Source: a virus (taxonomy: Duplodnaviria; Caudoviricetes). From it: a stretch of 64,000 nucleotides of DNA. The DNA lies in IMG/VR virus record IMGVR_UViG_3300001598_000048, positions 1 through 64,000 of that record; one strand, given 5' to 3'. Below are positions 1 through 64,000 of the stretch, in pieces. The translations under genes and the position numbers were made by a program. The notes under the pieces are model-generated. The model was given only the letters and a program-made list of their open reading frames with translations. It made no database searches and was not told the origin of the DNA. Every line of letters begins with the position of its first letter. The stretch's first letter is position 1.

Positions 1-1256
1 CATCCTGCTACGCTTGGATAAGCGTATATTGCAGATGTAGAAGGTGTCACTGTTACTAATGCAGTCTTACTTGTTGTTGTAGTTGCAAATGAAGTACAAG
101 TTTTAATATTATAATATTTATCTGTACCATATTGCATTGAATTAATATATCCTGCCGTATTAACTCTTGCTTGTGGAGAAAGCGTTAAATTAGCTGGCAT
201 AGCGGAAACTTCATCAAAATAAGTAGACAAACCTACATTATTAATAAAAGGTGTCATTGATCCTGTTGCAACTGCATTAATCTTTACATATTTAGTGTTC
301 TTTGTTCAACCAGCAGATGAACATTTTACATATTGAATTGCAGTTGAAGGAGTAATTGTTGTAATTAAATCAGTTCCAGCGCTTCCAGTTGCTCAAGATG
401 ATAATAATAAATTACCGCTATTATCTGTTAGTGTAGTATTAGTTCCATCATTATATGTCGCTACGGCATTACTAAATGATATATTTTGTCCACCTTGATC
501 TGAAATTTCTACATTTGTTCAACAACTATTTATTCCGCAATGACGATATACATAAAGATCATGATCGCTTGTATCGTGATATATATCTGTTGTTTCTCCA
601 TCGCAAGAATAAAGATATAGAGATAAACATCCATAATAATCATCAATACGCATTGAACCATTATTATGACGAACTTTTAGATAATTATTATTAATTAAAT
701 TAGAAATAATACCATTATTATTAATCGTTGATATTGTAGCATCATATTCTCCATCACCATAATTATTGATTGTTGTAATAGAACCTTGTTCAGTTGAATC
801 TGCATTATTATTTAGAAGACTTATTGAAGCAGAATTTCTTATAGAACCTATAAAACCAGAATTATCTATTGAATTTATACTCGCACTTGATTTAACAAAT
901 AAACTACTTAATGTTGTTAAACTTGGTATATCTAATCTATATATTTTTAATAAATCGCTATATCCAGCGGTTGAAACTATAGGTACGTTAGTAGATGCAG
1001 ATGAATAAAAAACATTTGAATATACTGCATCTGGCATAGTACCAGTTAATTTAGTATAATTATCTTTATAGAAAGTTTTATTTAATCTTACATCTGCTTC
1101 ACTTGCGTTTCCGTCTAAAACTGGCGCCGCAGGTCTAGTATAATTAACGTATATGTCGGCATCGCAATATTTTCCCGCAGTAGTGCATTTTAATGAACCT
1201 GTTGCACTTGTGGAACCTATTACTGTATTTTTATATTTAATTTCTACTTCTGCCAT
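1..1256 (-). CDS. Tail-fibre or tail-associated protein, runs off the window; needs TGA=Trp
   Basis: Track ORF 519-1256 stays open to position 1 across in-frame TGA at 519, 393 and 306; S/T/N/G-rich; last of a fibre gene array. Confidence 0.7.
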
Positions 1257-1257
1257 T

Positions 1258-2646
1258 TTATATTACCGTCCCATCCCAAATAGGTAGACTTACTTCTGAA
1301 ATAACAGTTGAGCCTACACATATTTGAATTTTTCCATTTGAAATATTTACTGTATCAACTATATTTGGTTTATTTAATAAATCATTATAACTACCAGTTT
1401 TACTTATTTTATGTAAATTGATTGTTCCTCCAAATGATTCATTAGTAGCAGTTGATTGTGTAGTTGTATTTGTTGTATTTAATACTCCAATAGTTGGTAT
1501 TGTAACTGCGCTTCCATATGCAGTTATATGACCTTGAGCATCAATTTTTATAGGATAAACTGCTTGTGCTGTTTGTGCTGTAATACTATTACTATGATTA
1601 AATTTAGTTCCAGATAATGATAAACCAGTTCCAGCAGAATAAGTTGTATCTGTAAATTTTGGAGATGAACCAACACTAACGCCATTAATAACCTTTACGT
1701 CATTACAAGTAAAACCATCGACTGGAACCGCAATGTAATTATATCCACTTACTGTTGCATATTCAGTATGATTTTTACCAATGAACTCTAATCCATAGTT
1801 AGAGTCAGCATTAAAATTTGTCATAACTTTAACATCTATAGAGTAATCGTTTTTTGCACCATAAGTACTTGTATATCTTTTAAGTTTTAAATAATAAACA
1901 TCTGTATTTGCAGTTGGTTGATAAATACCTAGTATATTGCTTCCATTGTAATTACAAGAATTAATCATAAATTTATTTTGTTGTCTACAATATCCAGTAA
2001 TTGTTGTTGAACCACTTGTATTATCGTAAACTGCTTGAACAAAGAATTTAGGTAATCTACTATAATATGTATAACCCGTTTTTACTTTTATATAAATATA
2101 AGTTTCATCTTGTAATTGATTTGTCAATGATAATGAAGCATTATATTGAGTTGTATCGTTTCTCCAATTACTTGAACTTGCTGTAGTTACTACAACGTGT
2201 CTTCTATATACTTTATTTGTATCTGATGCTAAATAATATTGACCATATCTATTACCAGTTAAAGCAAATATTTCTGCTTCAGTCATTGTTCCAGCTAAAC
2301 AACCTGGACCAATACCTATTTCACAAGTTAATTCTTGTGTAAATGCCATTGCTTGATCGTTTAAATGCAATAAGTCTACAGTATCTGCATTACCACCATT
2401 TGCAGGTAAAGATGTAACTGCACTACCATATCCTGTGATATGACCATAAGTATCTATTTTTATTGGATATAATGCTTGAGTTCCTTGAGCAGTAATTGCT
2501 GTATTTGAATGTCCTACTTTTTTAGATGTAATTGAAAGTCCTTTTTCTGCTTGTGATATAAAATTTTGATTAGTTATATATGTCTTAATAGATGACGCGA
2601 GCGTACTTAAGCCCGCGTAATCTAAATATTTATTAGCATTTGCCAT
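1258..2646 (-). CDS. Tail-fibre-like protein (462 aa)
   Basis: N-terminal YLDYxGL motif shared with the gene at 2659-5532; internal duplicated HSN..ITAQ..Q A.YPIKID..GHIT.YGSAVT module; KISKTGSYNDL module; both Trp codons are TGG. Confidence 0.75.
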   Translation of the reverse strand: MANANKYLDYAGLSTLASSIKTYITNQNFISQAEKGLSITSKKVGHSNTAITAQGTQALYPIKIDTYGHITGYGSAVTSLPANGGNADTVDLLHLNDQAMAFTQELTCEIGIGPGCLAGTMTEAEIFALTGNRYGQYYLASDTNKVYRRHVVVTTASSSNWRNDTTQYNASLSLTNQLQDETYIYIKVKTGYTYYSRLPKFFVQAVYDNTSGSTTITGYCRQQNKFMINSCNYNGSNILGIYQPTANTDVYYLKLKRYTSTYGAKNDYSIDVKVMTNFNADSNYGLEFIGKNHTEYATVSGYNYIAVPVDGFTCNDVKVINGVSVGSSPKFTDTTYSAGTGLSLSGTKFNHSNSITAQTAQAVYPIKIDAQGHITAYGSAVTIPTIGVLNTTNTTTQSTATNESFGGTINLHKISKTGSYNDLLNKPNIVDTVNISNGKIQICVGSTVISEVSLPIWDGTVI

Positions 2647-4085
2647 AAAAACTCCTTTCTATGCAAATAATGCTTGAATAGATGCATCTGTAATTGGAGA
2701 TAATGTATCACCATCAGGTGTAGTAAGTACTCCACTTGAATTTAAAGTAGAATATGTATTAGTTGCACTAAAATTTAATTTATTTGAACTTCAAGAAATA
2801 GTTACATTTGCACCAGCTTTAAAATCTAATGCACCAGTGTTAATAGCACTTCCTAAGATTTGAGTTCCATCTAATTTGATATTTCTTCAAGTATTTGTAT
2901 CAACTGGAATTTGAGAAGTTAATGCTAAAGTACCAGATGCAGATGGTCAATTAATATCATATGTATTGTTACCTACAGTTTTTTCAATCATTGAAGAATT
3001 TATTTCCAATCTTTTTGTAGGTAAATCAGGATCTGCAAATTCTATACTTGAACTACTTAAATGACTATAAGTATTTGCATTACCACCGTATACAAAAATT
3101 CCGTCAAATAATACTTTTGTATAAACATCAGTATTAAAAGAACTTGTAACATATAATTGATTTCCATTAATATATATGTTTTTATTTGCATAAGATTGTA
3201 TATATGAATTCGTATTATTTGTTGAATAAGATTGAACACCTGTTAAATAGTGTTTATTCTCATTCATTTGGTAATTACCAACATTAACTAAATCTTCTGT
3301 TACTGCTAAAGTTACTTCTTTTTCATCAGAATATAATGGTAAATAATATATATTATTTTTTGCAAAAAATGCCGCAAATTCTTCAGATGGATCACTAAAA
3401 TCTGCAGCGAATCCAAACGAACCATTAGTAGTATTAAACAACAAACAATTAATATCTAAGTTAATAAAATTGATACCATTAGTAGTTGTTTGTGTAATAC
3501 TAAGACCACCGTTATTTAGTAAAACTCCTCCTTTACTTCCAGCTAAAGTAAGATTTCCTGGAATAATTGATGCATAATCATTATCAGTACCATTATCAGT
3601 AATAAATAACTGACTGTGATTTAATTCAGCATATTTACTAGCTGTTTCTGTAATATGTAAAGTAGAACCGCTTGCATAGATATATTTATTGGAATAGGTT
3701 TGAGGATTAGTTCCACTACCTAAAGCACCAATTAAATACAATGCACTAGCACTTCAAGTTGCACCTGCGGTATTTTTTGTATCATTATCAGTAGAAGTGA
3801 TTGTTATCTCATTATTTGCAGTTTTAGATACGGTTGTAGCGCCAGATCCTTTAATATTTAAAGTAACATCTGTACTTTGATTTGCAGTAAATTCAGTTGC
3901 AGTAGTTCCACTACCTTGAATAGATAATTTACCGTTATTTACAGTTGGAATACTAGGTTTATCTAATAAGTCGTTATATGAACCAGTCTTACTTATTTTA
4001 TGTAAATTAATTGTTCCAGAAAATGATTCATTTGTAGCAGTTGATTGTGTTGCGGTATTATTAGTATTTAAAATACCCAATGTCG
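1371..4085. repeat. Diverged direct repeat shared by two fibre genes (about 1371-1495 and 3961-4085)
   Basis: Both encode LNT.NT.TQSTATNESF.GTINLHKISKTGSYNDLL.KP; DNA roughly 80% identical by eye. Confidence 0.8.
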
Positions 4086-5532
4086 GAATTTGATCAACCA
4101 ATGCTAATCTGCCACTTGCAGAAGGCCATGACATTATTATATCTGACGTTGTTTCGCCTTTTCTTCTTGTTATAAAATTTTCATCAATTCAAATTTGATT
4201 TGAACCAGATATATGTATATTATTTATGCCATAATTAGCACTTCTATCATTAGTTATTACTTGGAATGAATATTTATTCATTATCGAACGATCTGAACTA
4301 ATGTCTCCAATACATATTCCATTTTGATATAAACATATATTTGAAGCAGCATAAGATTGGATATAAGAAGTACTACTAGTAGTAGATACAGACGTAACTC
4401 CAGTTAAATAATATTGTGTATTAATATTAGAAGCATAATAATTTCCTACTGTATTCTTTGTATCTATATAAGAACTATTAATAGTAATTGTTTTTTGACT
4501 ACTATTTCCTACAATTGAGACATTATTTCCTGCTAAAAATTGAACCGCAGCACTTGCATCAAAAGTAACGTTACTAGTAGTTACAGTTTGATTTGCTAAT
4601 GTTGGTTTTTCTGTTTCTAATTTATAAACTGTAATATTTGAAGCAGTAGTTGATTGTACTCATCTATCAGGATAATTTTCATCTTCAAGATAAATATTAT
4701 CTCCAATTTTAAAATTAGCAATTGGAATAGTAGCACCACTTTTATCTATAAAAGACGAAAGCGTAACACTTGCGGCTGAAGTAGCTAAAGATGACATTTT
4801 TGTCGTATTAGTTACATAAGCTTTTACTTTACCTTGAGCAATAGCTCTAACTTCTTCTATTTTATTATAAACTGTAAGAGCACCAAAATAATTTGTATCT
4901 GTTACAGTTGAAGCATAGTTATTTGTTTTATTACTCGATGCTTCTGCACCAAGACCTGTTAAATCTGATAAAGCAACTGCAGTAGAACTAGTAATATGTC
5001 CATATGCATCATAAGCGAATTTTAAGAAACTATTTGAAGTAACAGAAGCAATACTACTATTACTATGACTAAAAGTTGCTTTTCCAGTAGTTCCGTCAGA
5101 AGAAATTGAAATTCCTCCGCCAGCAATTAAATCTAATGCGGTAAAATTATTACTTGCTAAGATACTATTTCCATTTACTTTAATTGTTCTTCAAGTTGTC
5201 GATTCATGAGTATCTGTCCAAGGAACAGTTACATATGCGTCATGATTATCAGTCAATTGAACTTTATAATTTCTATTTTCTGCACTTGAAGGTTCATTAA
5301 AATTAAAACCTAAATTAATTAAATTGGTAGAACCATCTGCTTCAATTTTACCGTTTGCTTCTTTCATTCCTGGTAAGAATGAAAAAGTACTATTTGCATA
5401 TGATGCAAGTGCGATTGTACTTACATCTAAATTATCAATCGCACTTGCTATTGCAGTACTTATATAAGTTTTAATATTACTGGTATATACAGATAGACCA
5501 GTATAATCTAAATATTGTTTTTGTATTGCCAT
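2659..5532 (-). CDS. Long tail-fibre protein (957 aa with TGA=Trp)
   Basis: Track ORFs 5191-5532, 3754-4134 and 2947-3741 share one frame; no TAA/TAG until TAG at 2659; 7 TGA (5191, 4660, 4189, 3754, 2947, 2887, 2791) vs 2 TGG; fibre motifs RAIAQGKVKAYV, WPSASG.LAL, DTKNTAG. Confidence 0.8.
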
Positions 5533-5541
5533 ATTGCGCCT

Positions 5542-8500
5542 CTATTGAAATAAATCTCCAATTTTTTCATTACTAATTGAAAGAGTTGGATAAATATAAT
5601 GTTGCTGTAAAATTAAACCGCTTCCTTCTGAATTGAAAACTGGTCTATATATTGTACCGTTTAAATCTGTCATACAACAATAGCGAGGTAAATCTTCATC
5701 ATAAATAGGAATATTATCTCCACCTGTCATATGTAATAAATAAAATTTTGCTCTAGAAGCATCACAATTTGTATTTTGATATTGAACTATAAGTGAATCA
5801 CTAGAAGTATCACCAATTATATTATAATCATTTAATCTATAACCATTAATATTAGTTAAAGTATTCGTTATTAATGCAAATTGCGAATCACCTGAAATTT
5901 CTACAGATGAAGATAATGTAGTTAAACTGATATGCGGTCCTTCACTAAATATAGTTGGTTCTGGACCACTATAAGATATCTTTGTAGGTCTTTCTACGAT
6001 TGGACCCGCAATTAATTCATTATGAAGATGTTCAGATTGATTTATTTTATCATATAAAGATACATCTTGAATATTATCTAAAACTGGAACCAGATCAAAG
6101 ATTAAATTATTATTTTCATCATATATCTTAAAATATTTTATAAAATATTTATTACTGCTTGTATATAAGAAAGTTCAGTTATTAGTTCGTTCTCTTCATG
6201 TGCAATTATTGAAAATAGGAAAATACATATTCTCATATTTTGTTTCTGTTGAAGTAGCAGAAGGAATTATTTCTATATTATCAATTTGAAGTCTATTTTT
6301 TTCTATAATAATAGTATGAAAACTCGATGTAATTAAAGGATAATTAATATCAGATGTTCATCCATGTTCTATTGTAACAAAATTTGAATTAGTTTGTATA
6401 GAACATAAACTTCCATTTGTTTTTTGTAATCCGCATAAACGTTGTGTTTCAGTACTAAAAACTTTAAAACAAATTTCATATTTAAATTTATCTGATAAAC
6501 AATTAAAATCAAAAGTTATATTATTATTAGATTTTGTTTTAGAGACATAATCTAATAGTTCATAATTATCAGGAATTCCACCTTCTCTACCGATATTAAT
6601 ATATCTACCAGCATTTTCATTTGTAAGTTTAATATCACTTAATAGCGCTAACGTACCACTTGAAGATGGTAAATTATATGTTTTTGAAGCTAAAGATTTA
6701 AATTGAGCATATAATCTTGGAGTTCCATTTAATACAGATAAACCAACTTTTCCATACATAAATCCTATTGCACCTGTAGTGCAACTAGTTTCAATACCAT
6801 AAGAATTAATAGATGTAGTATAATCATAATCTTCTGTACTTGTTTGAATTTGCAATAAAGAACCAGTAGCTTTTATATAATTATTTAAATAACTTTGAAT
6901 ATTTGCTGCGGATGAAGTTGCTCCTGCAAAGTATAAAGTTGCTGAAGCATCTGCAAAAGTCGCACCTATTGTATTTTTAGTATCAGTTGCATTAAAAGTA
7001 ATAGACGAACTGCCTGCTGAAGCCGCAATTGTAATATTATCACCTTGTATAAAATCAATACAAGAAGAGGCGCTAAATGTTATATTGTTTGCTTTAATTG
7101 TTTGATTTGAAATATTTATAGTTTGATCAGAACTTTGATTTAATGTAAATGAATCTAATAAAGAACCATTACTATTCAAAGTTATTCTTGCATCATTTGG
7201 CGCCGCAGCACTAATTGATAGTAAAGCAAATTTAATATAAATTTGATGTGGATAAGCGGTTCCTGAAATATTATTTACTTCGTAAATATATCTAGAATTG
7301 TATATTGTATTTACTTCTTGACCTTCAGCTGCATATTGACTATAAATATTAATTATATCTCCTTTAGATATAAAATCTCTTAAATCAAAATAATCGTCTC
7401 TGCCATCATCTTTACTTCTAAATATAATATATTTACTATTATTATTATCACTATGTGTTTCTAATGTTAAATATCAATGATTTGTTGATTCTTCAAAAAA
7501 TGTATTATAAATATCTTCTGTTAGATGTTCAAATTCTAAATTTAAATTATTTCCTTCACAGTAATTTAATACATCAGGACTTCCACCACGACCTATATAA
7601 GTTAAATCTGGCGTATAAAAAGATTTTGATGAATTAGAATGTCTAGGATTTATTTTAGTATTAATAGCAAATTCTCTAGTTTTTTGTTCTATGTTTTTTG
7701 TTAATGCTATTTCTCCAGATGTATTTGAAGGAAAACTAAAGAAATAATTTCCACTTTTTATTCGTGGTTGATAAATATGATATTCAGTACTTGGTGATGT
7801 GTCTTCTCAAATAAAACCTAAATTTTTTGTTGATACTGGATTTGTATCTTTAATACCTATAAAATTACTACTAATTTCTGAATAATATTGATTACCTTGT
7901 TGATAATTAAAACCTACCGTTAAAGAATCTTTTTTTAATTTAAAATATTTATTTGCATAAGTTTGTGGATTTGTTCCGCTAGCAGTAACACCAATTAAAT
8001 ATAAAGTACTGCTATCACTACTTCATGTCGCACCAGCGGTATTTTTTGTATCGTGTGTTTCAATTGTTAGTGTACCAGAGCTACCATCTACACTTGTATT
8101 TAAAGTAGTATCTCCACTTGCAGCAAACTTAATCGTTTTTGCTGATTCTTGATTAAAGGAAATAAAATCATCATTTCCTTTTTTAAAATTTAATGCATGT
8201 GTGTAATGCGTATCTGAAGCATTTATATATACCGTCTTATCTGAAACCGTTAAACTTGCTGCACCAGATGCATCAAAAGTTATTACATCATCAGAACCAA
8301 AAGAAGTGTTTCGTATTTGTATTGTTTGATTAGCTATATCGCTTACTAATGCGAAATTAACTGCTGTTGCTTCTACATTTTCTTTATATTGTGGTCTATT
8401 TGAATACGTTTGTAGTTCTGTTCAATAATTAGCTACATTTCTTTTTGCGAAATCACTACCAAAACTTAAATTACTTTCTGTTCCGGAATCAACTTTAGTT

Positions 8501-8988
8501 AAAACTAATTCATTATTTGATATATTTGCATCTTTAATATATTTGGTAATAGTAGTTCCACCGCCACCACCACCACTTAATTCATTAAATCTAATTCCAC
8601 TTGTTGCAATTTTTCCATCTCCGGAAATAATTGGTATTTCGCCTCTATGTTCTATTGAAATTGTTTTTTCTTCATCTCTATTTTCTAAAACTGTTAAATT
8701 AAAGTTGCAAGTTCTAGTAGAAGAATGTGCTGGAGCAGTGGCCATAACAGTAATTGAACTACTATTATTTATAGTATAGCTATATGTAGGTTGCATTGTT
8801 CCAGTATTAGTAACTCAAATAGAACAATTATTTAAATCTCTTACTCCTGGATAAGAATAAGTTGAACTTGTTGAAGTAGCACTTGGATTAAAAGTAAGAA
8901 CTTTTGAAGAAGTATCTTTATAAATACCGCCATTTCCTACAGCATATTCTTTAACAGCCTGTATTTTTTGTATTAAGTTATTATCCAT
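5542..8988 (-). CDS. Long tail-fibre or receptor-binding protein (1148 aa with TGA=Trp)
   Basis: RBS AGGAGG then ATG at 8988; track ORFs 8422-8796, 6358-7179 and 5542-5730 share one frame; 8 TGA; DTKNTAG/DTKNTIG modules; C-terminal region resembles phage fibre beta-sandwich domains (recalled). Confidence 0.75.
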
Positions 8989-9070
8989 AGGCACCTCCTA
9001 TCCAAAATTGTTGTCATAATATAAAGTTATTTTAACCTTACAAAAAAATTATACGACATAATAAGAAAAA

Positions 9071-9089
9071 ACGCAATTTTAGATTGCGT
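9071..9089. terminator. Intrinsic terminator-like hairpin
   Basis: ACGCAAT/ATTGCGT stem with A-run before and T-run after, next to the stop of the gene at 9093-9524. Confidence 0.6.
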
Positions 9090-9092
9090 CTT

Positions 9093-9524
9093 TTATAGTT
9101 TATCAGTTTCTATGTACTTCTCTCCTCACATTGTGGCTTGTGCTTCAAATCAAACCGCATCATATTCAGGAAGAGTAAAATATTTTTCTCTATTGTGTTT
9201 TAAAAGATATTCTCTATACCAATATCTTGTTGCAGATGGAATTTCAATTACAAAAAGATAAAGCGGTCCTCAGATGATATTTTGAAGTCCATGACCGCAT
9301 TCGTGTGATTGGATATAATCTTCTTGACAATCTTCTCCACATAAGAAGAAACAGCCGAAACTTACACCACCCCATCCTTTGGAAATAGTCTTATATATAC
9401 GTTCGTGATATTTATGCATTTTACCAAATGGTAAAATCATAAGAATTAAGCCGATTAAAGTTGCAGGTAAACCCCAAGTAAATGATAGAATGTAAAATAA
9501 AATTAATCAAAGTTTTCTTTTCAT
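9093..9524 (-). CDS. Small membrane protein with HExxH motif (143 aa, TGA=Trp), absent from the ORF track
   Basis: RBS GAGGTG, ATG at 9524; hydrophobic N-terminus MKRKLWLILFYILSFTWGLP; SHECGHGLQ; 4 TGA and 3 TGG; TAA at 9093. Confidence 0.75.
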
Positions 9525-9599
9525 AATACACCTCATATTTGATTTTATATAATTTATTATAGTAAATTCAATTTACAAAAAACAAATTTGAAATTAATC

Positions 9600-14721: not shown

Positions 14722-14750
14722 TTGACAAATAGAAAAAAATATACTATAAT
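14722..14750 (+). promoter_or_regulatory. sigmaA-type promoter
   Basis: Perfect TTGACA-N17-TATAAT. Confidence 0.85.
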
Positions 14751-15824: not shown

Positions 15825-15832
15825 GAGATAAT

Positions 15833-16123
15833 ATGAAAATAGAAAATAAATGTAAAAGTTGTAAACACGAAAAAGTTTGTCGATTTAAAGATGCATTTGA
15901 AGGTTCAAAAGAATTATTAGAAATATCAAGTAATTGGTTAGAAAGTGATAATTTTTCAATTGAATTAAAATGTAAACATTATGAAGAAGTATGGAGAAAT
16001 ACTTATGGAACAATTACTACAACACCATATTATAATGGCGGTTTTAAAATTAGTGATAATTTAAATTTTACTAATACACTTACTTCATCTGGAGATAATA
16101 ATGGACAAAGTACAACGATTTAG
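15833..16123 (+). CDS. Small Cys-containing hypothetical protein
   Basis: CKSCKHEKVC; RBS AGGAG. Confidence 0.65.
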   Translation: MKIENKCKSCKHEKVCRFKDAFEGSKELLEISSNWLESDNFSIELKCKHYEEVWRNTYGTITTTPYYNGGFKISDNLNFTNTLTSSGDNNGQSTTI

Positions 16124-17016: not shown

Positions 17017-17025
17017 GAGTTTAAT

Positions 17026-17208: not shown

Positions 17209-17217
17209 GAGTAGCAG

Positions 17218-19077: not shown

Positions 19078-19085
19078 TTAATTAA

Positions 19086-19170: not shown

Positions 19171-19175
19171 TAAAA

Positions 19176-41718: not shown

Positions 41719-41720
41719 TA

Positions 41721-47297: not shown

Positions 47298-47310
47298 ATT
47301 TTCTACCTCT

Positions 47311-48171: not shown

Positions 48172-48178
48172 AAAACAC

Positions 48179-48916: not shown

Positions 48917-48927
48917 ATCTAAACCTC

Positions 48928-50106: not shown

Positions 50107-50107
50107 A

Positions 50108-54761: not shown

Positions 54762-55097
54762 TTAATTTTTCATAATATTGCTTAATTTATCTAAATTTTC
54801 TTTTACTTCGTTATTTTCAGTTTCAAAAGTAGCTCCTAATTGTTCGAGTACTTCATTAATTTTATCTAAATTTAAATTATTAATACCTTTTTGAATCTTA
54901 TTAAATATTTCAGTATAATTAAAAGCATAAAATACTTTACTATATTTAATTACATCAAATAAAGATATTTTAGTTTTTTTAAAGAAATCTGATTGTTTAT
55001 ATTCTTTTTCAAATTCTGCGGTTTTTTCAATAAGATCAAAGAAATTTTCTTCCGCTAATAATTCTTTGATTTTTGTTTCTAATTCTTTATTATTCAT
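54762..55097 (-). CDS. Hypothetical helical protein (possible tail assembly chaperone)
   Basis: Directly upstream of the tape-measure gene. Confidence 0.45.
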   Translation of the reverse strand: MNNKELETKIKELLAEENFFDLIEKTAEFEKEYKQSDFFKKTKISLFDVIKYSKVFYAFNYTEIFNKIQKGINNLNLDKINEVLEQLGATFETENNEVKENLDKLSNIMKN

Positions 55098-55116
55098 AAT
55101 ATCCTTTCCTTTCTAT

Positions 55117-55818
55117 TTATTCTAAAGTTATATAATCTTCACCTGTATCTAAAACCTTAAAAATTAAATCTACGGTATTTGAAGATCTATATAAACTAAT
55201 TGTTTTATCAATTGTAATAACACATTTTTCAATATGTATCCAACTTGTATTAGTTTCATCTTCTTTATTTCCAAGAATTTCTAAATCAAGTGTTAAATAT
55301 TTATTATTATTTTTATTTAAACTGTATGCAAGAGTTCCTTCATAAGAATAGAAAATTAAATAACTACTATTCGCTTTTTGAAGAGTAAGTTCATGAGATT
55401 GAGTTAAATCAATTTCTCCTTCCGCTCTTTCTAAATTTCCTTCATCATTATAAATAAACACTTGATAAATCTTGGTTAAAGAACTATCTAAAAAAATCTT
55501 TTTATTTGCATCTGTAATAAAATTTTTACTAACATTACATAATTTTACTTCAGATTTGAGGAAAATTAAATTCAAAATTTTATTTGTAAGTATTACGTTA
55601 GGTATACGAACTTCTGATACAGAATCTGCATAATAGCCTAATTGTTGTAAATCAGTTTTAGCTTTCTTTTCAATTTGTTTAAAATTTACAGTTGCTTCTA
55701 TATCTTTTAAAACTGTATATGGTTGATTTCCATAAGTCATTTGAACTTCGCCAATATTAGAACCAGAAAAAGATCTTATAATACAGTTCGCTTTATTACC
55801 AAGTTTATAAGTTTCCAT
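55117..55818 (-). CDS. Hypothetical tail-module protein (233 aa)
   Basis: RBS GAGGTG; position in the tail module. Confidence 0.55.
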   Translation of the reverse strand: METYKLGNKANCIIRSFSGSNIGEVQMTYGNQPYTVLKDIEATVNFKQIEKKAKTDLQQLGYYADSVSEVRIPNVILTNKILNLIFLKSEVKLCNVSKNFITDANKKIFLDSSLTKIYQVFIYNDEGNLERAEGEIDLTQSHELTLQKANSSYLIFYSYEGTLAYSLNKNNNKYLTLDLEILGNKEDETNTSWIHIEKCVITIDKTISLYRSSNTVDLIFKVLDTGEDYITLE

Positions 55819-55841
55819 ATAGTCACCTCATTTCTAATAAT

Positions 55842-55870
55842 AGTATAATGAACGAAATCGAAAAAATCAA
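55842..55870 (-). promoter_or_regulatory. sigmaA-like promoter restarting tail-gene transcription
   Basis: TTGATT-N17-TATACT on the minus strand. Confidence 0.55.
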
Positions 55871-55898
55871 TTTCAGATATTAAAAAAGAGAAGAAAAA

Positions 55899-56363
55899 TT
55901 ATTTCTTCTCAATTTGAAATCTATATGTAATATCTATCCAATCTTTATTATTTTTCTTATAGAACTTTTGATTCGTAGTTTTCTTATTTAACGGTCCAGC
56001 AGATGGAATATATGGACCAACTTTATAATAATCTAAAACAGATGCTAAAGTTTTATCAAATTCTTTTGAACCACTATACATCGCTGTTTTTAATTTAGGA
56101 TATTTATTTTTAATAGCGATACTAAGTAATCTAATTTGATCGTGATCTCTATCTCCACCCATAAAACATAAACAAGAAATATGCGGATTTGCATCAATAA
56201 GTTTACACAAAGAAACAATATTAATTGGAGTGCCATAATCGTTCGCGAGTCAAGGTTCAAAACAATCTTGACAATGACACGGACAATTAGTAATGTTAAG
56301 ACATAATGTTATTTCATCTGGAACTTCAGTAAAAGTGATTAAAGTTTCCGCATATTTTAACAT
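55899..56363 (-). CDS. nrdG: Anaerobic RNR activating enzyme (154 aa, one TGA)
   Basis: EVPDEITL, CPCHCQDC radical-SAM motif, P[TGA]L at 56250, CFMGGD, YYKVGPY, TTNQ. Confidence 0.9.
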
Positions 56364-58219
56364 TCTTTTTTATCTACTCCTAGATACGCACGTTTACCTG
56401 CTTCGACTTGACGAGCCGCGCTAAATGAAGATACACGTTTTAGATATCCGATAATTCTAGTTGCATAATCAACATCATCTGAACCGCATTCTGGACAAGT
56501 ACCAAAAGTATGTTTGCTAATATGACCACAATTATTACAGATGGTATTCATAACATTATAAGTGAAGTATGAACATCCTTCAGCAACTGCAACGTCCATT
56601 AATTTACGATATTGTTCTGCGGTTAAATGTTCATCTAAATTATTATGAAGCGCGCTACCACCATCACATTGACCTGTAAAATTATTTCCATGATAGCGGA
56701 ATTTTTTAATTGGATCAATAGATTTATCTTCAACTAAATAGAAATAAGAATTATAACAATCTCTTGGAACAATATAACCATCTTTTTTATCCCATTTTGC
56801 ATTCTTAACGCCTAACGATTCCGCAGGAACAAATTCAGTATTAAATTTAGCGTGTTCTTCTCTTGCGCTTACATTCATTTCGTGAATTGTATTTAAAATA
56901 TCAGATGCAAACTGTTTATATTTGTCATTATTTGGATTAATTTCAATTCCTAAAAATTCTGCTGCTTCAACGAAACCATTGATACCAATTGTTAAATATT
57001 GTCTATCTAAATCAATAAATCCGGCATCATAAATAGTTAATAATCCACCATTTTTATAATCCCAAATAATTTCATTAAATGCTTTTAAATATTTATGAAT
57101 ACGAGAAACTATTGCGGCTAAATATTCCTTTAAAGGAACTTGTTGTTCTCTATACCAATCTTGAACAATGCGGTTTAAATTCATTGTAATAACGCCTTTT
57201 GAACCTGTTTCAATTCCACCTGCGCCAAGTGTATAAGAGAAGATATTATCTTCAATGCCGTTTCTAAGTCTGCAACAAGATGATAATGAATCTACACTTT
57301 CACTTTGATACATAAAGAACGATGCGCCTTCAGCCCACATTTTACAAGCGAATGCCGCAGTTTCTGGATCTGAATATACGCCATTTGGAGTATGCATATT
57401 AACTGTTTCAACTGGGAAAGTTAAAATAGTTTTAAGACGTTCTTTATTAAATCAATCAGCATAAAGTTTTTGTATTTCTTTTGTTGTTTTCCAACAAGGT
57501 TCATCTCCATCTGGAAATACGAAATCTTTAAAAATTGCTTCAAAATAATCGTGATCGAAATATGCAATATTTAAGAATATTGATTGATATCCACGTGCAC
57601 CCGCAGGTTGATTTACTGTATAAGTAATTTGTTCAAAATATTGTTGCAATTTTTCTCTTAATGTTACTTCTGGTTTTGATTGTCCCCATAAATATTCTAC
57701 TGTATCATCTAAATGATTAATATAATCTTGACCATAATCAATACGTGCAAAATGATCAAAATAAGTTAATGCTTCTGGAGTTGCTGTTGCTCCTGCAAAT
57801 TGTCCCGCAACGAGGAATACTAAATTGATAAAAGAACCGCAAAATGAACGTAAATGTTTAGGCGCAGTTGATCCGCCACCAATTTTTGTTAATCCATCTA
57901 AAAGATATGGATATAATGAAATTGAACAGCAATATGGGAATATTGAAGTTTCATCGTGTTTATAAATAATATGATGTGCTAAATCAATTTCATATTGTTT
58001 TGCCAATTCCGCATTATATTTTTTAGTTAATTTTAAACGCATTAATTCTCTATTGAGTGCGATAAAATTCTTTTTAGGCAATTCTGCCGCAAGTGTCGCA
58101 ATATTTTTAGTTGCTACATTTGCATTTTGGTCTACTTCACTACCTGACGCCGCATTTTTGGCAATCATATAGTTTTGCATAAACTCAATTTGTTGTTCTA
58201 ATGTTTGTTCTAAACTCAT
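56357..58219 (-). CDS. nrdD: Class III (anaerobic) ribonucleotide reductase (620 aa, one TGA)
   Basis: NANVATKN, YKHDE, YCCSI, TFPVET, SCCRL, EFVPAE, GGSALH, CNNC/CPEC, TRIIGYL; TGA at 57452. Confidence 0.95.
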
Positions 58220-58221
58220 TT

Positions 58222-58458
58222 TTAAACCTCTTCAAACTTTCCTGTATTTTTAAATCTTCTTAATAAATCAAGTGCATCTTTGTATTTGTATTTAGTTCCG
58301 TTGATGCAAAGAACAGGAACCGATGATATTCCTAACTCAGACATCACATCTGCATCTTGACAATCAGTGTAAGAAAGTTTACAAGCGTCGAGTTCACGTT
58401 TAAGCATTTTACACATTCCGCAAGTTGGTAAAGAATATACTATGATACTATCTTCCAT
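58222..58458 (-). CDS. Glutaredoxin/NrdH-like redoxin
   Basis: YSLPTCGMC, SSVPVL. Confidence 0.8.
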   Translation of the reverse strand: MEDSIIVYSLPTCGMCKMLKRELDACKLSYTDCQDADVMSELGISSVPVLCINGTKYKYKDALDLLRRFKNTGKFEEV

Positions 58459-58492
58459 ATATTATCTCCTATATTTTTTTTGTATGTATATT

Positions 58493-58521
58493 ATTATAGT
58501 TTTAATTTTGGGTTTTGTCAA
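58493..58521 (-). promoter_or_regulatory. sigmaA-type promoter of the RNR cassette
   Basis: TTGACA-N17-TATAAT on the minus strand. Confidence 0.85.
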
Positions 58522-58538
58522 AAGAGGACAAATAAAAA

Positions 58539-58560
58539 AAGATTCTCCGAAGAGAATCTT
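58539..58560 (-). terminator. Intrinsic terminator after the major-tail-like gene
   Basis: AAGATTCTC-CGAA-GAGAATCTT with T-run on the minus strand. Confidence 0.8.
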
Positions 58561-58570
58561 CCATAAAATA

Positions 58571-59236
58571 TTAACTTCTATTTACAATTGAGTAGAAGAA
58601 TTTATGTTTACAGCTTGCGCCTGATGTATCGCCAACAGTAATTTCAGTAGGAATTAAATCTCCATTGAGATCAAATACTGCGGCATCACCTTCAGCATCT
58701 TGATTTAAATTAAATATTGAATCTGGTAAGAAATTATAGAAAATAATACCAACATTCTTTTGTTCACCTTTTTTGTCAACAAAATATGTTTCACCAATAA
58801 TAGTTTTTGATGAATTGAAATCTTCTCCTATATTTAATGATTCTAATGTTTTTGCTGCTGTTCCTTCACTAACATAGTTAGCTACACCACCACAAAGATG
58901 ATCAATAGCATTAACATCTCCTAAAGCATCTTGCATTTCTAATCTGGCTTTTTTACCAAATTTTAATAATGGACTAGTAGATTGTCCGCCAGTAATAGTT
59001 TTATTTGGTCCTTCAAGAGTAACATTTGAAACTTTTAAATATTTTAATTCACAAAGTGCTGAAGCAGTAGCAGTAGATAAAGTATCTCAAATAGCACTTG
59101 CTGTTTGAGTAGCAAAACTTGAAGCATAAGTACTATTTTCGAATACATAAGCATTCATTACTGTTACAACACCGAATTCTTTCATTAAACTATCAAATGT
59201 TAAAGAAGTACCTTCTAAACGTGAATAATTAGCCAT
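58571..59236 (-). CDS. Probable major tail protein (221 aa, one TGA)
   Basis: ATG at 59236 with RBS GAGG; TGA at 59087; ITGG...LEMQDALG; position after the neck genes. Confidence 0.55.
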
Positions 59237-59251
59237 GTTATAACCTCTTAT

Positions 59252-59983
59252 TTATTTTATAAAGAAATCCAATTTCTTGCCTTTCTTTACATTTCCAGCC
59301 GCATATGCTTTTTCATTAAAGCGATAAGACACTTCTCCAGCGGCCATTTTTTGGAGTCAGTGAATTTGAGCCATTGTTTGATCAAGCAAATAATCAAAAG
59401 TTAATGAAGGAAAACTATAAGTAATAGATAAGATGACCTTGCTTAATCCATCAGCGTCGCTTTCCTTTTGAGCCTTTATCTTTTTGATTTTTTCTTCTGT
59501 TTCTTGTTGTTTAAGAAGCATAGCTTGTATCTCTGGAGTAAGATTATTAAGAGGTTGAGTTGTCTTTACTCCACATGTTAATTTTAATATATATACAATA
59601 TAATTTCAAATTTCAGATATTATAGTAACACCGTCAATTTTAATTATTTTTTCCGCATATATTATTTCTGCGGTAGGACAAATTTCTTTTAAAACGTCTA
59701 CCATTTGATTCGCAATCGAATTATATTCTTTATACATTCCTAATTCAAAAATAATTGTTTTAACATAATCATATGTATAGTTTAATTTAATTTTAGGAAA
59801 AAGTTTTAATCATTGCGCTTCATTCATTGTTCATAAATGGAAAATAGAATTCCATTTATCGTCAGAATAAAATGCTCTAACTGGTTTACAATGAATATTA
59901 ATTTTATTTTTTTTATCAATAATAATTGATATTATTTTCGTAGCGAATAATCTTGTAATACTGAAATTATCAGTAATTTCCAT
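59252..59983 (-). CDS. Hypothetical tail-module protein (243 aa, 4 TGA), absent from the ORF track
   Basis: Coupled ATG at 59983; open to TAA at 59252. Confidence 0.65.
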
Positions 59984-60489
59984 TATAATTCCGCCTTTCT
60001 TATAGAGATTTGATTATTAAAATTAAAACTAATACGATATCCGAAATGAGATTCTGAATAAGTTACAGCAGATGCGTAAGTAATACCTATTTCTCCTGCC
60101 GCCGAAAGTTTGATTCCGTCTAAACTATTTGTGACTTCATTAATAAGTTGTAAAAGTCTGTTTTTATTATTTTTCAATATTACATGCGCATAATCAGTAC
60201 CAACGAAAATATAGCCGCTTGCACGAGTTTCATCAGTAGATAAATTCATATCATTTAAATGAATTACTAAAAAAGTATTTCTATCTTTATTTTTTAAACC
60301 GCTTTCAATACGTGGTGCTAAAGATATGTATTCTTGATCAAGTAATTGTTGAAATGTAAGTGGAGTAAAAGATTCAGACATATCATTTTTATCTAAAACT
60401 AAAAGTTTTTGAAGATTTTGATTTTGACTTAATACTTGTCCCATTTCAAATAAAGTTTTCTCTATAATAAGTATTTTATTTTGGTTCAT
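59983..60489 (-). CDS. Probable tail terminator/completion protein
   Basis: Position in the neck-tail junction; positional call. Confidence 0.45.
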   Translation of the reverse strand: MNQNKILIIEKTLFEMGQVLSQNQNLQKLLVLDKNDMSESFTPLTFQQLLDQEYISLAPRIESGLKNKDRNTFLVIHLNDMNLSTDETRASGYIFVGTDYAHVILKNNKNRLLQLINEVTNSLDGIKLSAAGEIGITYASAVTYSESHFGYRISFNFNNQISIRKAEL

Positions 60490-61331
60490 TAAATCACCTC
60501 ATAATTAGTAACAACATTTTGTCCATTTGATTTTGTCGTAATAGTTACTTCATCAACGCCAAATGGAATAGCAAATGTAACAGATGTACTAGATAAATTT
60601 GATGATTTAACTTCTTTGTTTGATGATAAGAAATAGCCGTTTTCTGTGCTTAAAGTGATTGGAATTCCCGCACTTATCTTATATTTTCCTGTAGTTGGAT
60701 TATATGTTGGTGTAGAAATTATATCTGGATTTTCAATTACTGGTTGTTCAATTACGCCAGTAGTCGCAGATCCGCTTTTATCTTTACTCATTGTGCCAAG
60801 TTTTAATGTATAATAAGTTATACCTGCAGTAGAGATATTATCCATTTCTTGAACAGTAAATGAACGATTTGAAATAAGTATTTTATCATCAATATTAAGC
60901 GGTTGACCGCCTAAGATAAGAATAGGATGTTGTTGCGATTGCAATAACACTTTTTCTTTTAGTGCTACATTAATAGCACTTTCTTGTGGACCTTTAAAGA
61001 ATCCATAATTAGTGCCAACTTGAGTATTACATAAATATGCTAAATACTTATGAAATTTTACATTTTTAATTATAACGAATTCTTCTGAAATTAATCAATG
61101 ACAATTTTTTGCAGATCAAACACTTCCAATATCAAGTGGATCTGAAGTATAAGTATATATATATGCTAAATCCTTCTCTTGTCTATTTACAATCGCCGCA
61201 GTTTTAGCCACGCCTGTAGTGCTTGTAATAGTAGTAGAAGGATAACCGTTAAAAACAAATTTAGTACTTATATTATCGTTTGCTACTACTCTATCTTGAT
61301 TTAATTTTTTAAATCTTTCGAAACTATTCAT
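60489..61331 (-). CDS. Probable head-closure or neck protein (280 aa, 2 TGA)
   Basis: Track ORFs 61116-61331 and 60489-60950 share one frame across TGA at 61116 and 61095. Confidence 0.55.
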
Positions 61332-61849
61332 TAGTTAATATCCCCTAACGATGGTTTCTTTGTAGCAGAAACACGACTATAACGATTTTCTAAATCTCTA
61401 GCATTACTACGATATTGATCGAGTAATTTAATATTTTTATCTACTGCGTTTGCACGAGAGAAGGTTTTGATATTTGAATCTGTATAAATATCTTCAAAAT
61501 TATCAGCATTAGAGATTTGATATTCGCACCAATATACTTTCATTCAAGCGATAATAATTTCTATTTCTGCTTGAGTTAAATCGTTATTAAAATAAGCGTG
61601 CGGAATCGCATCATCATAACCTTCTTGTTCAGGAGTAATTATGATAAGACTATGATCTCGATTTCTAATTGCTCTAAAAGTAGTATAACTAATATCTATT
61701 TTAGGAAACTTGAAAGCGCAAATTGCGCGGCATGCTAAATAATAACATTCTTCATCAATATTATCTTCAGTGATTACGCCATAATATTCACCACGAATAG
61801 TAGCACGAAATGGTGGATATAAAACATCATCCCAATATTGATTTGGCAT
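61331..61849 (-). CDS. Probable head-tail adaptor (172 aa, one TGA)
   Basis: EIEIIIA[TGA]MKVYW joins two track ORFs; F.FPK and LT..EIEIIIA.M pattern. Confidence 0.6.
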
Positions 61850-61873
61850 AGTTTTTACCTCTTATTGGTTTTA

Positions 61874-62353
61874 CTATTCACCGTCTATTGTTAATTGAAC
61901 TTTGTATAAAGATTCAAGCATTTTAACTACGCCTTGAGTTAATTCAGACACATTAGCAGTTATGACATCCATAACTTTATCTTGACCGAAATCTTCACCG
62001 GCTTTCATAATAGCGGCTCTGTTTCCTGATTTAAGAATAGCAAGAATCTCTGCATCACGATTTACAGATGCAGGAACAAAATCTAAAACTTCATCAAAAT
62101 ATACACCTGCTTCAATAGCTGCTTTAACAATAGCGTCATTATCATCAAAAGTAATATATCCTTGTTTATACATTGAATAAACATCTTCATCTAAGAATAC
62201 GCCTAATGCCCAATCTAATGGTAAAGATTGTTGTGGAAGTCTATTTGTTAAATGAATTTTTCTAACAAGAGTGTTATTAGAAACTGGACGTAAATCAAAT
62301 AATACTTCCATTGGTGTAGTTTTAATAAGTTTAAAATTTCTATTTTCAGACAT
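61874..62353 (-). CDS. Hypothetical head-module protein (159 aa)
   Basis: RBS AGGAG; follows the capsid gene. Confidence 0.6.
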   Translation of the reverse strand: MSENRNFKLIKTTPMEVLFDLRPVSNNTLVRKIHLTNRLPQQSLPLDWALGVFLDEDVYSMYKQGYITFDDNDAIVKAAIEAGVYFDEVLDFVPASVNRDAEILAILKSGNRAAIMKAGEDFGQDKVMDVITANVSELTQGVVKMLESLYKVQLTIDGE

Positions 62354-62380
62354 TTTCTATGTCTCCTTTCTTTAATTTTT

Positions 62381-62413
62381 AAAAAGGGAGAAGAGAGAAA
62401 AACTCCTCTCCCC
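62381..62413 (-). terminator. Terminator after the major capsid gene
   Basis: GGGGAGAGGAG-TTTTT-CTCTCTTCTCCC-TTTTT on the minus strand. Confidence 0.7.
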
Positions 62414-62428
62414 GTAAAATAAGTTTAA

Positions 62429-63499
62429 TTAGTTAGTAATTTTAATTACAGCGTAGTTGTTAGCCATTGCAACGCCAACACCGAGCATTTTGTGAGCTTC
62501 CCATTTTTCTGAACCAGTAGCTTGTTCATTTCTCTTGATGTATAAATCGCCTTTCATAGCAACTTTTACAGGTTTAGCTCCACTTGGGATTACGAATACA
62601 TAATTGCTTGCATAAGCCCATTTATCGTTAGTTTTGTCTTCTAAGTAGTTAGGTAATTCAACAACGTTAACTCCTTTGTATACTTGAACGAAACCAACAT
62701 TTCTAATATCCATTGAGTCTTGGTTATTAGGATATCCTGCAGCATATGTTGTATTAGCAATTGGGTTGTATAAGTTTTGTAATTCTTTATAGAAACCGAA
62801 AATTGTTGGAACGCCATATTGTTTTACATATTGCATAACAATATCAATTGCTGCTCCCATAGTTTCTTTAGTTGTTAAGATGTTTCTATTAGAATCATAG
62901 TTATGGTTTCCAGAACCACTTGTAGCTGTACCAACGATCTTTTCATAAGGAGCGCCTGCAGCTGGTGTAGCACTGATTAATGCGTTATAAACTTCTTTAT
63001 AAACGACTTCTTGGAATCCTTCAACGATGTTATTGAATAATTCGCCTAATGTAATAGTTCCAAGTAATAATTCTTCTAAAGTTACATAGATACCAACAGT
63101 ATAAACATCAACTGGTAATGAGAAATACTTATTGTCTAATTTAGCAGCTCTATAGATACCGCCTCTTGCGCCTTTAGAAATAGTGAGTTTTGCACGTTTC
63201 TTTCCGATCTTTTCGATATCGAAAATAACTTCTGCGTCTCTTGCGAAAGTTTTAACTTCAGCAAATTGACCCATGATACCTTGAATCTTAGCAGGTAATA
63301 CTTCATCTACTAATTCTTCAACGATTGCGAATGCACTAGCTTCAGCTCTTTCAATTTCTTTATAAGTCGAATTTTCAGATAAACCGATTTCTTTTGCTAA
63401 AGCGTTAATAGCAGCTTCATTAACTTCTTGTGCTGAGAAGTTTGTGCTAGGTTGATTAGTTAAAGCGGCGATAATGCCTTTTCTTAATTCGTTTGTCAT
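62429..63499 (-). CDS. Major capsid protein (356 aa)
   Basis: Size, position, high-expression codon bias, HK97-like pattern (FAEVKTF, VVELPN, KPVKVAMKG); both Trp codons TGG. Confidence 0.8.
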   Translation of the reverse strand: MTNELRKGIIAALTNQPSTNFSAQEVNEAAINALAKEIGLSENSTYKEIERAEASAFAIVEELVDEVLPAKIQGIMGQFAEVKTFARDAEVIFDIEKIGKKRAKLTISKGARGGIYRAAKLDNKYFSLPVDVYTVGIYVTLEELLLGTITLGELFNNIVEGFQEVVYKEVYNALISATPAAGAPYEKIVGTATSGSGNHNYDSNRNILTTKETMGAAIDIVMQYVKQYGVPTIFGFYKELQNLYNPIANTTYAAGYPNNQDSMDIRNVGFVQVYKGVNVVELPNYLEDKTNDKWAYASNYVFVIPSGAKPVKVAMKGDLYIKRNEQATGSEKWEAHKMLGVGVAMANNYAVIKITN

Positions 63500-63517
63500 T
63501 TTCTTATACCTCTCTAA

Positions 63518-64000
63518 CTATTTAATGAACATATAATGATATGCTGTAGTTCCATCTGCTAAAGTTGTGCAAGTGAAAAAATCATCAGATTGACCAACAC
63601 CGTCAGTTGAAGCGATAGAAACAATTCTTCCATATAATGGATCAGAAGCATTAGAACCTAATTCTAATGACATATCTGACATCCATTCATCACCAGGCAT
63701 TAATTGAACTAATCTTAAGCATTCATGATTGATGTCTGTTGAATAGAATTTATTAGCATTAAATACTGTGTTTAATGGTTCATTGTAAACAATGAATAAT
63801 GAATCACCAACGACTGGATCTTTGATACCATCTTTACCGATAGTAACGATATGACCATTAGCGATATGATTAGTTGTAGCAGTAGATGTACTGTCTGCTA
63901 AATTATATTTTTCTTGTGTAAAAGTACTATTTGTTGAAGCAACTGGTAATTGAGAAACTACAAATCCAGGTTGTAATCCTTTTAAATTGTTAGGTTCAAC
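63518..64000 (-). CDS. Capsid-associated (decoration/cement-like) protein, start outside the window
   Basis: Frame open from 64000 to the stop at 63518 with no TGA; VEPNNL...Q and L..GDEW pattern; directly upstream of the capsid gene. Confidence 0.55.
   Translation of the reverse strand, partial: VEPNNLKGLQPGFVVSQLPVASTNSTFTQEKYNLADSTSTATTNHIANGHIVTIGKDGIKDPVVGDSLFIVYNEPLNTVFNANKFYSTDINHECLRLVQLMPGDEWMSDMSLELGSNASDPLYGRIVSIASTDGVGQSDDFFTCTTLADGTTAYHYMFIK

Follow-up and report, generated by a model that had tools for sequence, protein, structure and literature searches.

The virus sequence deposited as IMG/VR record IMGVR_UViG_3300001598_000048 (Caudoviricetes) belongs to a phage in which about half of the genes use TGA as a tryptophan codon but the core replisome genes lack this codon altogether. 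The stretch of DNA analyzed here (the window) comprises positions 1 to 64,000 of that record, which make up the initial 64 kb of one contig of 73,445 bp with a GC content of 29% and no N. Comparisons with related phages show the marks of gene-specific purifying selection against TGA in the replisome genes. We consider it likely that the phage infects a member of the Bacillota that uses the standard code, that it shifts the decoding of UGA with a tRNA of its own, and that TGA has been selected out of its early genes.

Genes were annotated with PHROG and Pfam, and the codon counts of the contig are taken from a curated gene list. Reading TGA as sense raises the coding density of the whole contig from 0.753 (code 11) to 0.947 (code 4), and no comparable gain is obtained there when TAG or TAA is read as sense. 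In-frame TGA codons are present in 33-35 of the 66-67 genes of the contig, which hold 125-127 TGA and approximately 140 TGG codons in total. The 66 complete genes end in TAA (48) or TAG (18). TGA has been given up as a stop codon, and each of the 32 TGA-free genes (32/32) also closes with TAA or TAG. Only code 4 yields intact genes for the helicase, permease, RNase H, NrdD, portal, and tape measure. If the TGA-bearing genes are read with code 11, approximately 80% of their residues are lost, with the first TGA located at a median of 18% of gene length. These results bear out the proposal of the first-pass annotation that gene fragments join in frame across TGA and that genes end in TAA or TAG. 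They also mean that code-11 gene callers will fragment half of this genome.

The distribution of the recoded codon is highly uneven. Ten named replisome genes (those for the ligase, both topoisomerase subunits, the product of 24759-25619, the Sak-like annealing protein, DnaB, primase, RecJ, DnaE, and DnaQ) together carry 60 TGG codons and no TGA, with 26 of the TGG codons residing in the TGA-free DnaE gene. The gene at 41721-47297 has 20 TGA and 2 TGG, the gene at 5542-8994 has 8 TGA and no TGG, and the tape measure gene has 6 TGA and 1 TGG. Every hand count made in the first-pass annotation proved exact on recount. A Fisher test by gene class, which had been put forward as a check on this contrast, gives p = 4e-26 for the core replisome versus the tail and fiber genes (59 TGA and 11 TGG). 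Head and packaging genes are intermediate (18 TGA and 15 TGG; p = 0.003 versus tail and p = 1e-10 versus replisome). It had also been argued that neutral use of code 4 would favor TGA. Indeed, in the core genes a fraction of 0.90 of the codons of A/G twofold families end in A, and under such neutral use the observed 0 of 60 has a probability of approximately 4e-60. The trinucleotide TGA itself is not avoided, because it is frequent out of frame in the same core genes (24.6 per kb), and a restriction-site or trinucleotide effect was rejected on this ground.

Codon alignments show, at the level of sequence, that TGA stands for tryptophan. In the RNase H gene, the GG-TGA motif aligns to the GGW of a solved RNase H, as the first-pass annotation had anticipated, and in the permease gene H-TGA aligns to the HW of UraA. 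Two TGA columns of the UvrD-like helicase (93 and 421) are occupied by W in 119/119 and 108/119 homologs, respectively, and the helicase of the closest long relative is free of TGA and translates under code 11. Searches of solved structures for the equivalent RuvC and NrdG tryptophan sites yielded no matches. When all genes shared with eight related loci were aligned by codon, relatives were found to have TGA at 31, TGG at 28, and other codons at 27 of the 86 aligned TGA sites (Tyr 5, Ser 1, Gly 0). Thus, TGG represents 28 of the 55 non-TGA codons opposite the TGA sites of this phage. In the reverse direction, 49 of its TGG codons face TGA in a relative. Because TGA exchanges with TGG at aligned sites, glycine (code 25) is excluded and serine is strongly argued against. 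Code 25 would place TGA opposite glycine, and no glycine is present among the listed residues, where TGG dominates.

The comparison with relatives also separates selection from history. This phage is one of a large family, with contigs of approximately 110-125 kb and more than 100 related contigs found, and all sampled members are recoded at TGA with the same gene pattern. Relatives whose DnaE proteins are 73-74% identical to that of this phage hold 0 TGA and 25-26 TGG codons in the gene. Among 113 aligned tryptophan codons of DnaE, none shows a TGG-to-TGA difference, and the next gene downstream has 38 such differences. This downstream gene (35669-36793) is kept in relatives with 7-18 TGA codons there, and it is a natural control in that, as judged from the alignments, TGG and TGA swap freely among relatives. 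Given 0/113 flips in DnaE and saturation in the gene next to it, neither lack of time nor recent transfer can explain the TGA-free state. Recent transfer of a replication module was likewise rejected, given that the TGA-free pattern is kept across relatives. These alignments show that the absence of TGA from the replisome genes results from purifying selection acting on specific genes. TGA counts of other genes vary from one relative to another, for example from 0 to 5 for the helicase and from 0 to 3 for the permease.

A separate observation concerns the DnaE gene of the closest long relative (G002; L022:9980-15602). This gene is interrupted by insertions of approximately 1.5 kb that include a 287-amino-acid open reading frame (ORF) with 3 TGA codons. 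The insertions are probably a mobile intron or an intein with a homing endonuclease.

The contig as a whole is organized in three blocks according to the PHROG and Pfam annotations, and the genes of the window are distributed among them as follows (paired numbers are TGA/TGG codons).
9.7-37.6 kb, plus strand: replication and nucleotide-metabolism block (PHROG/Pfam).
37.7-70.3 kb, minus strand: block of tail, nrd, head, and packaging genes (PHROG/Pfam).
0-9.5 kb, minus strand: second block, with large genes that are probably fibers.
3..9536, minus strand: large genes, probably fibers and mostly TGA-rich (3/0, 0/2, 7/2, 8/0, and 4/3), the first cut by the contig end.
9662..14714, plus strand: DNA-processing operon that depends on TGA read-through, with genes for an exonuclease-like protein (1 TGA), RNase H (1/6), a 206-amino-acid protein (2 TGA), a UvrD-like helicase (5/1), and a 562-amino-acid ORFan (10/1).
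14802..35669, plus strand: replication block with genes for an ATP-dependent ligase, a deoxyribosyltransferase, topoisomerase II subunits, a Sak-like annealing protein, DnaB, primase, RecJ, and DnaE (PHROG).
35669..36793, plus strand: tryptophan-rich gene directly after DnaE (374 amino acids, 14 Trp, 3/11).
37030..39244: DnaQ-like exonuclease (plus strand), Bmp/PnrA-like lipoprotein at 37656-38846 (minus strand), and a 113-amino-acid gene (minus strand), all TGA-free.
40722..54742, minus strand: TGA-rich tail module with a tail fiber carrying an S74 chaperone domain (3/0), a protein of 1858 amino acids (20/2), three genes of no recognized function (6/0, 3/1, and 3/3), and the tape measure (6/1).
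54762..64000, minus strand: TGA-poor region with two small tail-associated genes (0 TGA), an nrdG/nrdD operon (1 TGA each), and head genes.
62429-63499, minus strand: homolog of the YonB-like major capsid protein (0/2).

The first-pass annotation had described the pattern as a replisome compatible with code 11 and virion genes that are not. The first part stands for the core replisome: recoding is partial, with about half of the genes bearing TGA, and the core remains readable in the standard code. The second part does not hold throughout, because 7 of 24 virion-module genes lack TGA (including the capsid homolog at 62429-63499, its two neighbors, and two small tail genes) and several DNA-metabolism genes carry it. 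The latter encode the exonuclease-like protein (1), RNase H (1), the UvrD-like helicase (5), RuvC (RuvC/HNH, 2), NrdD (1), NrdG (1), and a GIY-YIG protein (8). TGA is also found outside the virion genes in the uracil permease gene (3) and in the gene after DnaE (3). The replication block at 14802..35669 holds 5 TGA and 76 TGG codons overall, and its TGA-bearing exceptions are the permease gene at 17218-18498 (3), 18476-18682 (1), and 19220-19666 (1). A dichotomy between replisome and virion is therefore too simple; the transcription unit fits the pattern better than function does, as protein abundance probably does.

The TGA-free units are linked to a particular class of promoter. Sites that match the sigma-70 consensus TTGACA-N17/18-TATAAT perfectly occur eight times in the contig, compared with 0.1 expected from block-wise shuffles. 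All eight are intergenic (8/8), and in seven cases the gene directly behind the promoter is free of TGA. Those in the window are the following.
14722..14750, plus strand: perfect TTGACA-17-TATAAT promoter before the ligase gene, at the start of the TGA-free block.
18666..18694, plus strand: perfect consensus promoter before the TGA-free gene 18808-19077.
19745..19773, plus strand: perfect consensus promoter before the gene for the topoisomerase large subunit.
21730..21758, plus strand: perfect consensus promoter before 21778-22068 and the second topoisomerase subunit.
31559..31587, plus strand: perfect consensus promoter before DnaE.
58493..58521, minus strand: perfect consensus promoter before the small TGA-free ORF 58222-58458 and the nrdD/nrdG operon.

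Of the other two perfect promoters, one precedes the GIY-YIG gene and one a small early ORF located at 71.85 kb. This linkage fits a predicted transcription of the TGA-free units by host polymerase early in infection. The operon for the exonuclease, RNase H, and helicase has a different, near-consensus promoter, TTGACA-17-TATACT at 9600-9628, which is conserved in relatives at L004:7902-7930 and L006:7723-7751 and may mark a different temporal class. Toward the end of the contig, 71800-73445 (L001:13800-15445) is an array of early cassettes that continues past the last position of the contig. Each unit comprises a consensus promoter, a strong ribosome-binding site, a TGA-free ORF of approximately 60 codons, a hairpin, and a spacer rich in GC. 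The minus-strand ORFs that a length-based caller picks there are spurious.

A candidate for the decoding factor is found in relatives. A tRNA with anticodon UCA, hereafter tRNA(UCA), is present in 5 of 5 related lineages examined (six contigs: G001, G002, L004/L005, L006, and L132). The complete 119.6-kb genome G001 has about 30 further tRNAs, including Trp-CCA. In G002, which spans 92 kb and whose DnaE is 78% identical to that of this phage, tRNA(UCA) is the sole tRNA. Copies lie at L004:4121-4217, L006:5342-5437, L132:7488-7584, L017:222-318 (minus strand), and L023:1498-1592 (minus strand). The molecule is 95-97 nucleotides long, with a 7/4/5/5 cloverleaf, a long variable arm (5 bp and a 7-nucleotide loop), G73, and an encoded CCA end. 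Three of the four aligned tRNAs (L004, L006, G001, and G002) have A1-U72, and compensatory changes are evident in 17 of 25 base pairs. G73 and A1-U72 are identity elements for tryptophanyl-tRNA synthetase (TrpRS), and a long variable arm is typical of serine and selenocysteine tRNAs. Because tRNA(UCA) mixes a Trp-like end with a long arm, we base the assignment of the amino acid on the codon alignments instead of the tRNA.

In L004, L006, and L132, tRNA(UCA) is located within a cassette that consists of a perfect consensus promoter, a TGA-free ORF of approximately 100 codons, a 115-amino-acid GIY-YIG gene with 3-4 TGA codons, the tRNA, and a hairpin terminator. This phage carries a GIY-YIG gene at 70631-71614, behind which lie a spacer rich in GC and more promoter-ORF cassettes, the last of them cut off where the contig stops. 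CheckV estimates the completeness of the contig at 66%, which implies a full genome of probably about 110 kb, and by analogy with its relatives this phage probably carries its tRNA(UCA) in the missing third. A scan of IMG/VR for the exact pattern of the G002 tRNA anticodon arm returned G002 alone, and we found no description of a phage tryptophan suppressor with a long variable arm in the literature, our coverage of which is incomplete. It is tempting to speculate, although we think it rather improbable, that the code switch is run by an unusual and possibly undescribed suppressor that combines a Trp-like acceptor end (A1-U72, G73) with a covarying long arm, and that the cassette operates as a self-reporting accumulation timer. 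If this were true, the extra arm could alter recognition by a synthetase, a modification enzyme, or an anti-tRNA defense.

Several observations bear on the host. Along its entire length, the DnaE protein shares 35-37% identity with the YorL proteins of SPbeta-like phages that infect Bacillus and Enterococcus (37% over 99-100% of the length for SPbeta yorL). The gene at 62429-63499 falls in YonB-type capsid clusters, with 26-28% identity to phAss-1 and SPbeta-like phages, and the named hosts among its matches are all Bacillota. Given this SPbeta-type DnaE and capsid, the contig is classed as approximately two-thirds of an SPbeta-like siphophage genome, with distant kinship only, from an animal or human gut. 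Judged by DnaE and capsid, every one of the nearest cultured relatives is a phage of Bacillota. A Shine-Dalgarno-like motif precedes 52 of 66 genes. The best cellular match of the Bmp/PnrA-like lipoprotein (68% identity) is in a metagenome-assembled genome (MAG) of a 'Bacilli bacterium' from goat colon (1.4 Mb, 27% GC), where the matching locus contains no in-frame TGA and prfB, the gene for release factor 2 (RF2), is present. From this match and from phage relatives binned with bacterial genomes, we chose a candidate host order of Bacilli with small, low-GC genomes (GTDB), and RF2 scores above the curated cut-off in 97 of its 106 genomes, several of which have the single in-frame TGA of the RF2 frameshift site. 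Because RF2 is present, the order is expected to use the standard code.

Binned in MAGs of this order are a distant phage of 181 kb and a relative whose DnaE gene has 76% nucleotide identity, both of which are weak evidence. The distant contig (G046:C1; L119-L128; 180,928 bp) was considered as a prophage and rejected, as it is a phage contig binned into a small-genome Bacilli MAG. It has 25 tRNAs and no tRNA(UCA), its DnaE is 41% identical, and parts of it are denser in coding under code 4. From gene similarity, composition, and binning, we infer that the host is most likely a low-GC member of the Bacillota that uses the standard code.

The overall pattern has been published before for stop-recoded gut phages, and this phage is a clean example of it, not a new phenomenon. 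Borges et al. (bioRxiv 10.1101/2021.08.26.457843; later Nat Microbiol 2022) described TGA-recoded 'Agate' phages of approximately 127 kb from animal guts, which combine standard-code replication genes with recoded structural and lysis modules. They also have suppressor tRNAs for TGA and, within an early gene, an intron endonuclease rich in TGA. In recoded clades on standard-code hosts, 26-71% of genes have in-frame stops, compared with 90% for phages of recoded hosts (10.1101/2021.08.26.457843). The approximately 50% of genes that bear TGA here fall within the former range. Further likenesses are gut genomes of approximately 110-127 kb, TGA as tryptophan, a replication machinery kept in the standard code, recoding of structural genes across several modules, a homing-type endonuclease rich in TGA, replichores marked by GC skew, and the loss of TGA as a stop codon. 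The differences are that this contig has no tRNA and that no lysis cassette is recognized in it. The match to Agate was judged from the published description, the clade being defined on a large-terminase tree with at least 95% support. What the present analysis adds to that description is a codon-level test of selection, the link to promoters, and an account of the tRNA with its long arm and its cassette.

Other systems are more distant. The TAG-recoded crAss-like, Lak, and phAss-1 phages (code 15) share partial recoding biased toward late genes and phage suppressor tRNAs, but they reassign another stop to another amino acid (TAG to Gln), and the crAss-like and Lak phages infect Bacteroidota. 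Among deposited phages, phAss-1 provides the best capsid match (28% identity), and it is predicted to infect Clostridia; its group is TAG-recoded (PMC10607447). The SPbeta-like phages of Bacillus, Staphylococcus, and Enterococcus resemble this phage in their YorL-type DnaE, YonB-like capsid, large siphovirus-type genome, and long tape measure gene, but the divergence is deep (26-37% identity). We know of no description of stop-codon recoding in SPbeta-like phages. Mycoplasma phages MAV1 and P1, whose hosts use code 4, have a similar GC content (27-29%), read TGA as tryptophan, and end their genes in TAA or TAG. In contrast to the present case, they have TGA nearly everywhere: in 14 of 15 genes of MAV1 (50 TGA to 15 TGG) and in 9 of 11 genes of P1 (39 to 2), including genes for a DnaB-like protein and DNA polymerase. 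Here, TGA is found in 33 of 66 genes and in none of the core replisome, and not in approximately 90% of genes, replication genes included, as in phages of code-4 hosts.

Given these findings, the following course of events is the one we favor. The order of its steps is inferred. Early genes located behind consensus sigma-A/sigma-70 promoters and devoid of in-frame TGA would be translatable by unmodified host machinery. The phage tRNA(UCA) would then accumulate and compete with host RF2, such that UGA would increasingly be read as tryptophan. Only genes translated after this accumulation would tolerate TGA. In such genes, mutation pressure toward AT would drive TGG to TGA, to near equilibrium in the low-copy tail, fiber, nuclease, and ORFan genes. 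The capsid and other late proteins made in very large amounts would retain TGG, probably because some yield is lost at each suppressed UGA. The net effect would be a translational lock on about half of the genes. The first-pass annotation had proposed a code-11 host and a mid-infection switch that serves as a developmental timer. A standard-code host and decoding run by the phage gain indirect support from the conserved TGA-free replisome, the contrast with Mycoplasma phages, the tRNA(UCA) of relatives, and the RF2 of the candidate host order. The idea that TGA was selected as a timer does not.

A number of observations weigh against this interpretation. Searches with ARAGORN under both codes and with Rfam found no tRNA in the window or in the contig, which is 66% complete. 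The first-pass annotation had suggested looking beyond the window for tRNA-Trp(UCA), release factor 1 (RF1), or TrpRS. None is on the 73,445-bp contig, where no RF1 or TrpRS/TyrRS domains were detected, and none of these domains is in G001 or G002. Permissive Rfam scans gave only chance matches both at 18.3-19.8 kb, which is syntenic with the location of the G002 tRNA, and after the GIY-YIG gene. Even where tRNA(UCA) is present, its own location behind an early consensus promoter would require that the delay be produced by accumulation, and its long variable arm and G73 could in principle attract seryl-tRNA synthetase. There are also exceptions to the promoter rule. The GIY-YIG gene with 8 TGA codons sits behind a perfect promoter, and TGA is present in NrdD, NrdG, and the permease, in or beside early-type units. 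Relatives provide further exceptions, with one TGA in a RecJ gene and TGA in some DnaQ homologs. Finally, the host assignment depends on gene similarity, composition, and binning. Matching of clustered regularly interspaced short palindromic repeat (CRISPR) spacers, which the first-pass annotation had proposed as a route to the host, gave no match in the 106 candidate-order genomes with two phage segments as the query, only homologous genes and AT-rich noise. A 34-nucleotide match in G064 was rejected as a spacer, as it is not in a repeat array.

Of the alternatives, the one that survives best is that TGA has been positively selected in late or toxic genes (tail, lysis, and nuclease genes) to block their premature expression, and thus has an adaptive role as a timer. 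We judge this possible, with the odds against it. It would account for the fact that the most TGA-rich genes are nucleases and hypervariable ORFans in early-type units (the GIY-YIG gene with 8 TGA and 2 TGG, the 562-amino-acid ORFan with 10 and 1, and the corresponding slots of relatives with 9-17 TGA), and the position of the first TGA, early in the gene (median 18% of length), would be in keeping with it. Borges et al. also report three Agate gene families with a significant preference for TGA, including the intron endonuclease. However, passive accumulation explains the TGA of tail genes equally well, because the TGA share there (59/70, or 84%) is at or below the 95% share of A-ending codons in A/G twofold families, such that mutation pressure is enough. 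Moreover, the per-gene counts noted above for the helicase and permease vary freely among relatives, as under drift.

Far less probable is that the host itself uses code 4, as in Mycoplasma-like Bacilli, and that the TGA-free replisome reflects recent transfer from a code-11 phage or a codon bias linked to expression. The GC content of 29%, the small genomes of the Bacilli that are the nearest donors of Bmp, and the lack of a suppressor tRNA on the contig would all be in keeping with such a host. Nevertheless, DnaE, DnaB, primase, and the topoisomerases remain TGA-free in relatives down to 73% identity while neighboring genes are saturated with flips, genuine phages of code-4 hosts put TGA in their replication genes, relatives encode tRNA(UCA), and prfB is present in 97 of 106 genomes of the candidate order, several with the frameshift TGA of RF2. 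Least credible of all is that TGA encodes something other than tryptophan, such as glycine (code 25), serine via the long-arm G73 tRNA, or selenocysteine: the long arm and G73 are features of serine and selenocysteine tRNAs, and ARAGORN labels tRNA(UCA) as SeC under the bacterial code, but TGA and TGG swap at aligned sites (28 and 49 cases) where serine is listed once and glycine never, TGA occupies invariant tryptophan columns, the 7-bp acceptor stem and 4-bp D stem are not the 8/5 architecture of selenocysteine tRNA, and some 125 TGA codons with no sign of a context like that of a selenocysteine insertion sequence would make selenocysteine implausible.

Some features of the genome lie outside this argument. 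No terminal overlap that would indicate circularity was found between the contig ends, and genes are cut at both ends. The minus-strand head region extends beyond the window to portal and packaging genes. Pfam and PHROG assigned no function to the fiber-like genes at 3..9536, and Pfam recognized almost nothing among ten tail, fiber, and small genes and ten head genes, with no lysis gene identified. The genes at 16411-18498 and 37656-38846 encode a nucleoside 2-deoxyribosyltransferase, an NCS2/UraA-type uracil permease, and a Bmp/PnrA-like nucleoside-binding lipoprotein. Judging from these annotations, the three look like a set for nucleobase and nucleoside salvage, and low-GC Bacilli are the apparent source of the lipoprotein. 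Directly behind the UvrD-like helicase gene, the same slot (13026-14714, plus strand) always holds a TGA-rich ORFan of 560-690 amino acids that is rich in N, S, and Y. Its counterparts (L004:11311-13371, L006:11310-13082, and L132:11312-13357) have no detectable similarity between lineages, and a homolog search with the 562-amino-acid ORFan returned only itself. This slot is a hypervariable gene inside the replication module.

For specialists, a useful point is that TGA-free units coincide with perfect promoters of the host type. The charging of the long-arm tRNA(UCA) found across the family is directly testable. The contrast within one operon between DnaE and the next gene shows that TGA has been excluded by purifying selection and not by lack of time. 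The phage thereby provides a well-quantified example of how gut phages of standard-code hosts keep their early genes in the code of the host while the reassigned stop codon accumulates in genes that would be expressed later.

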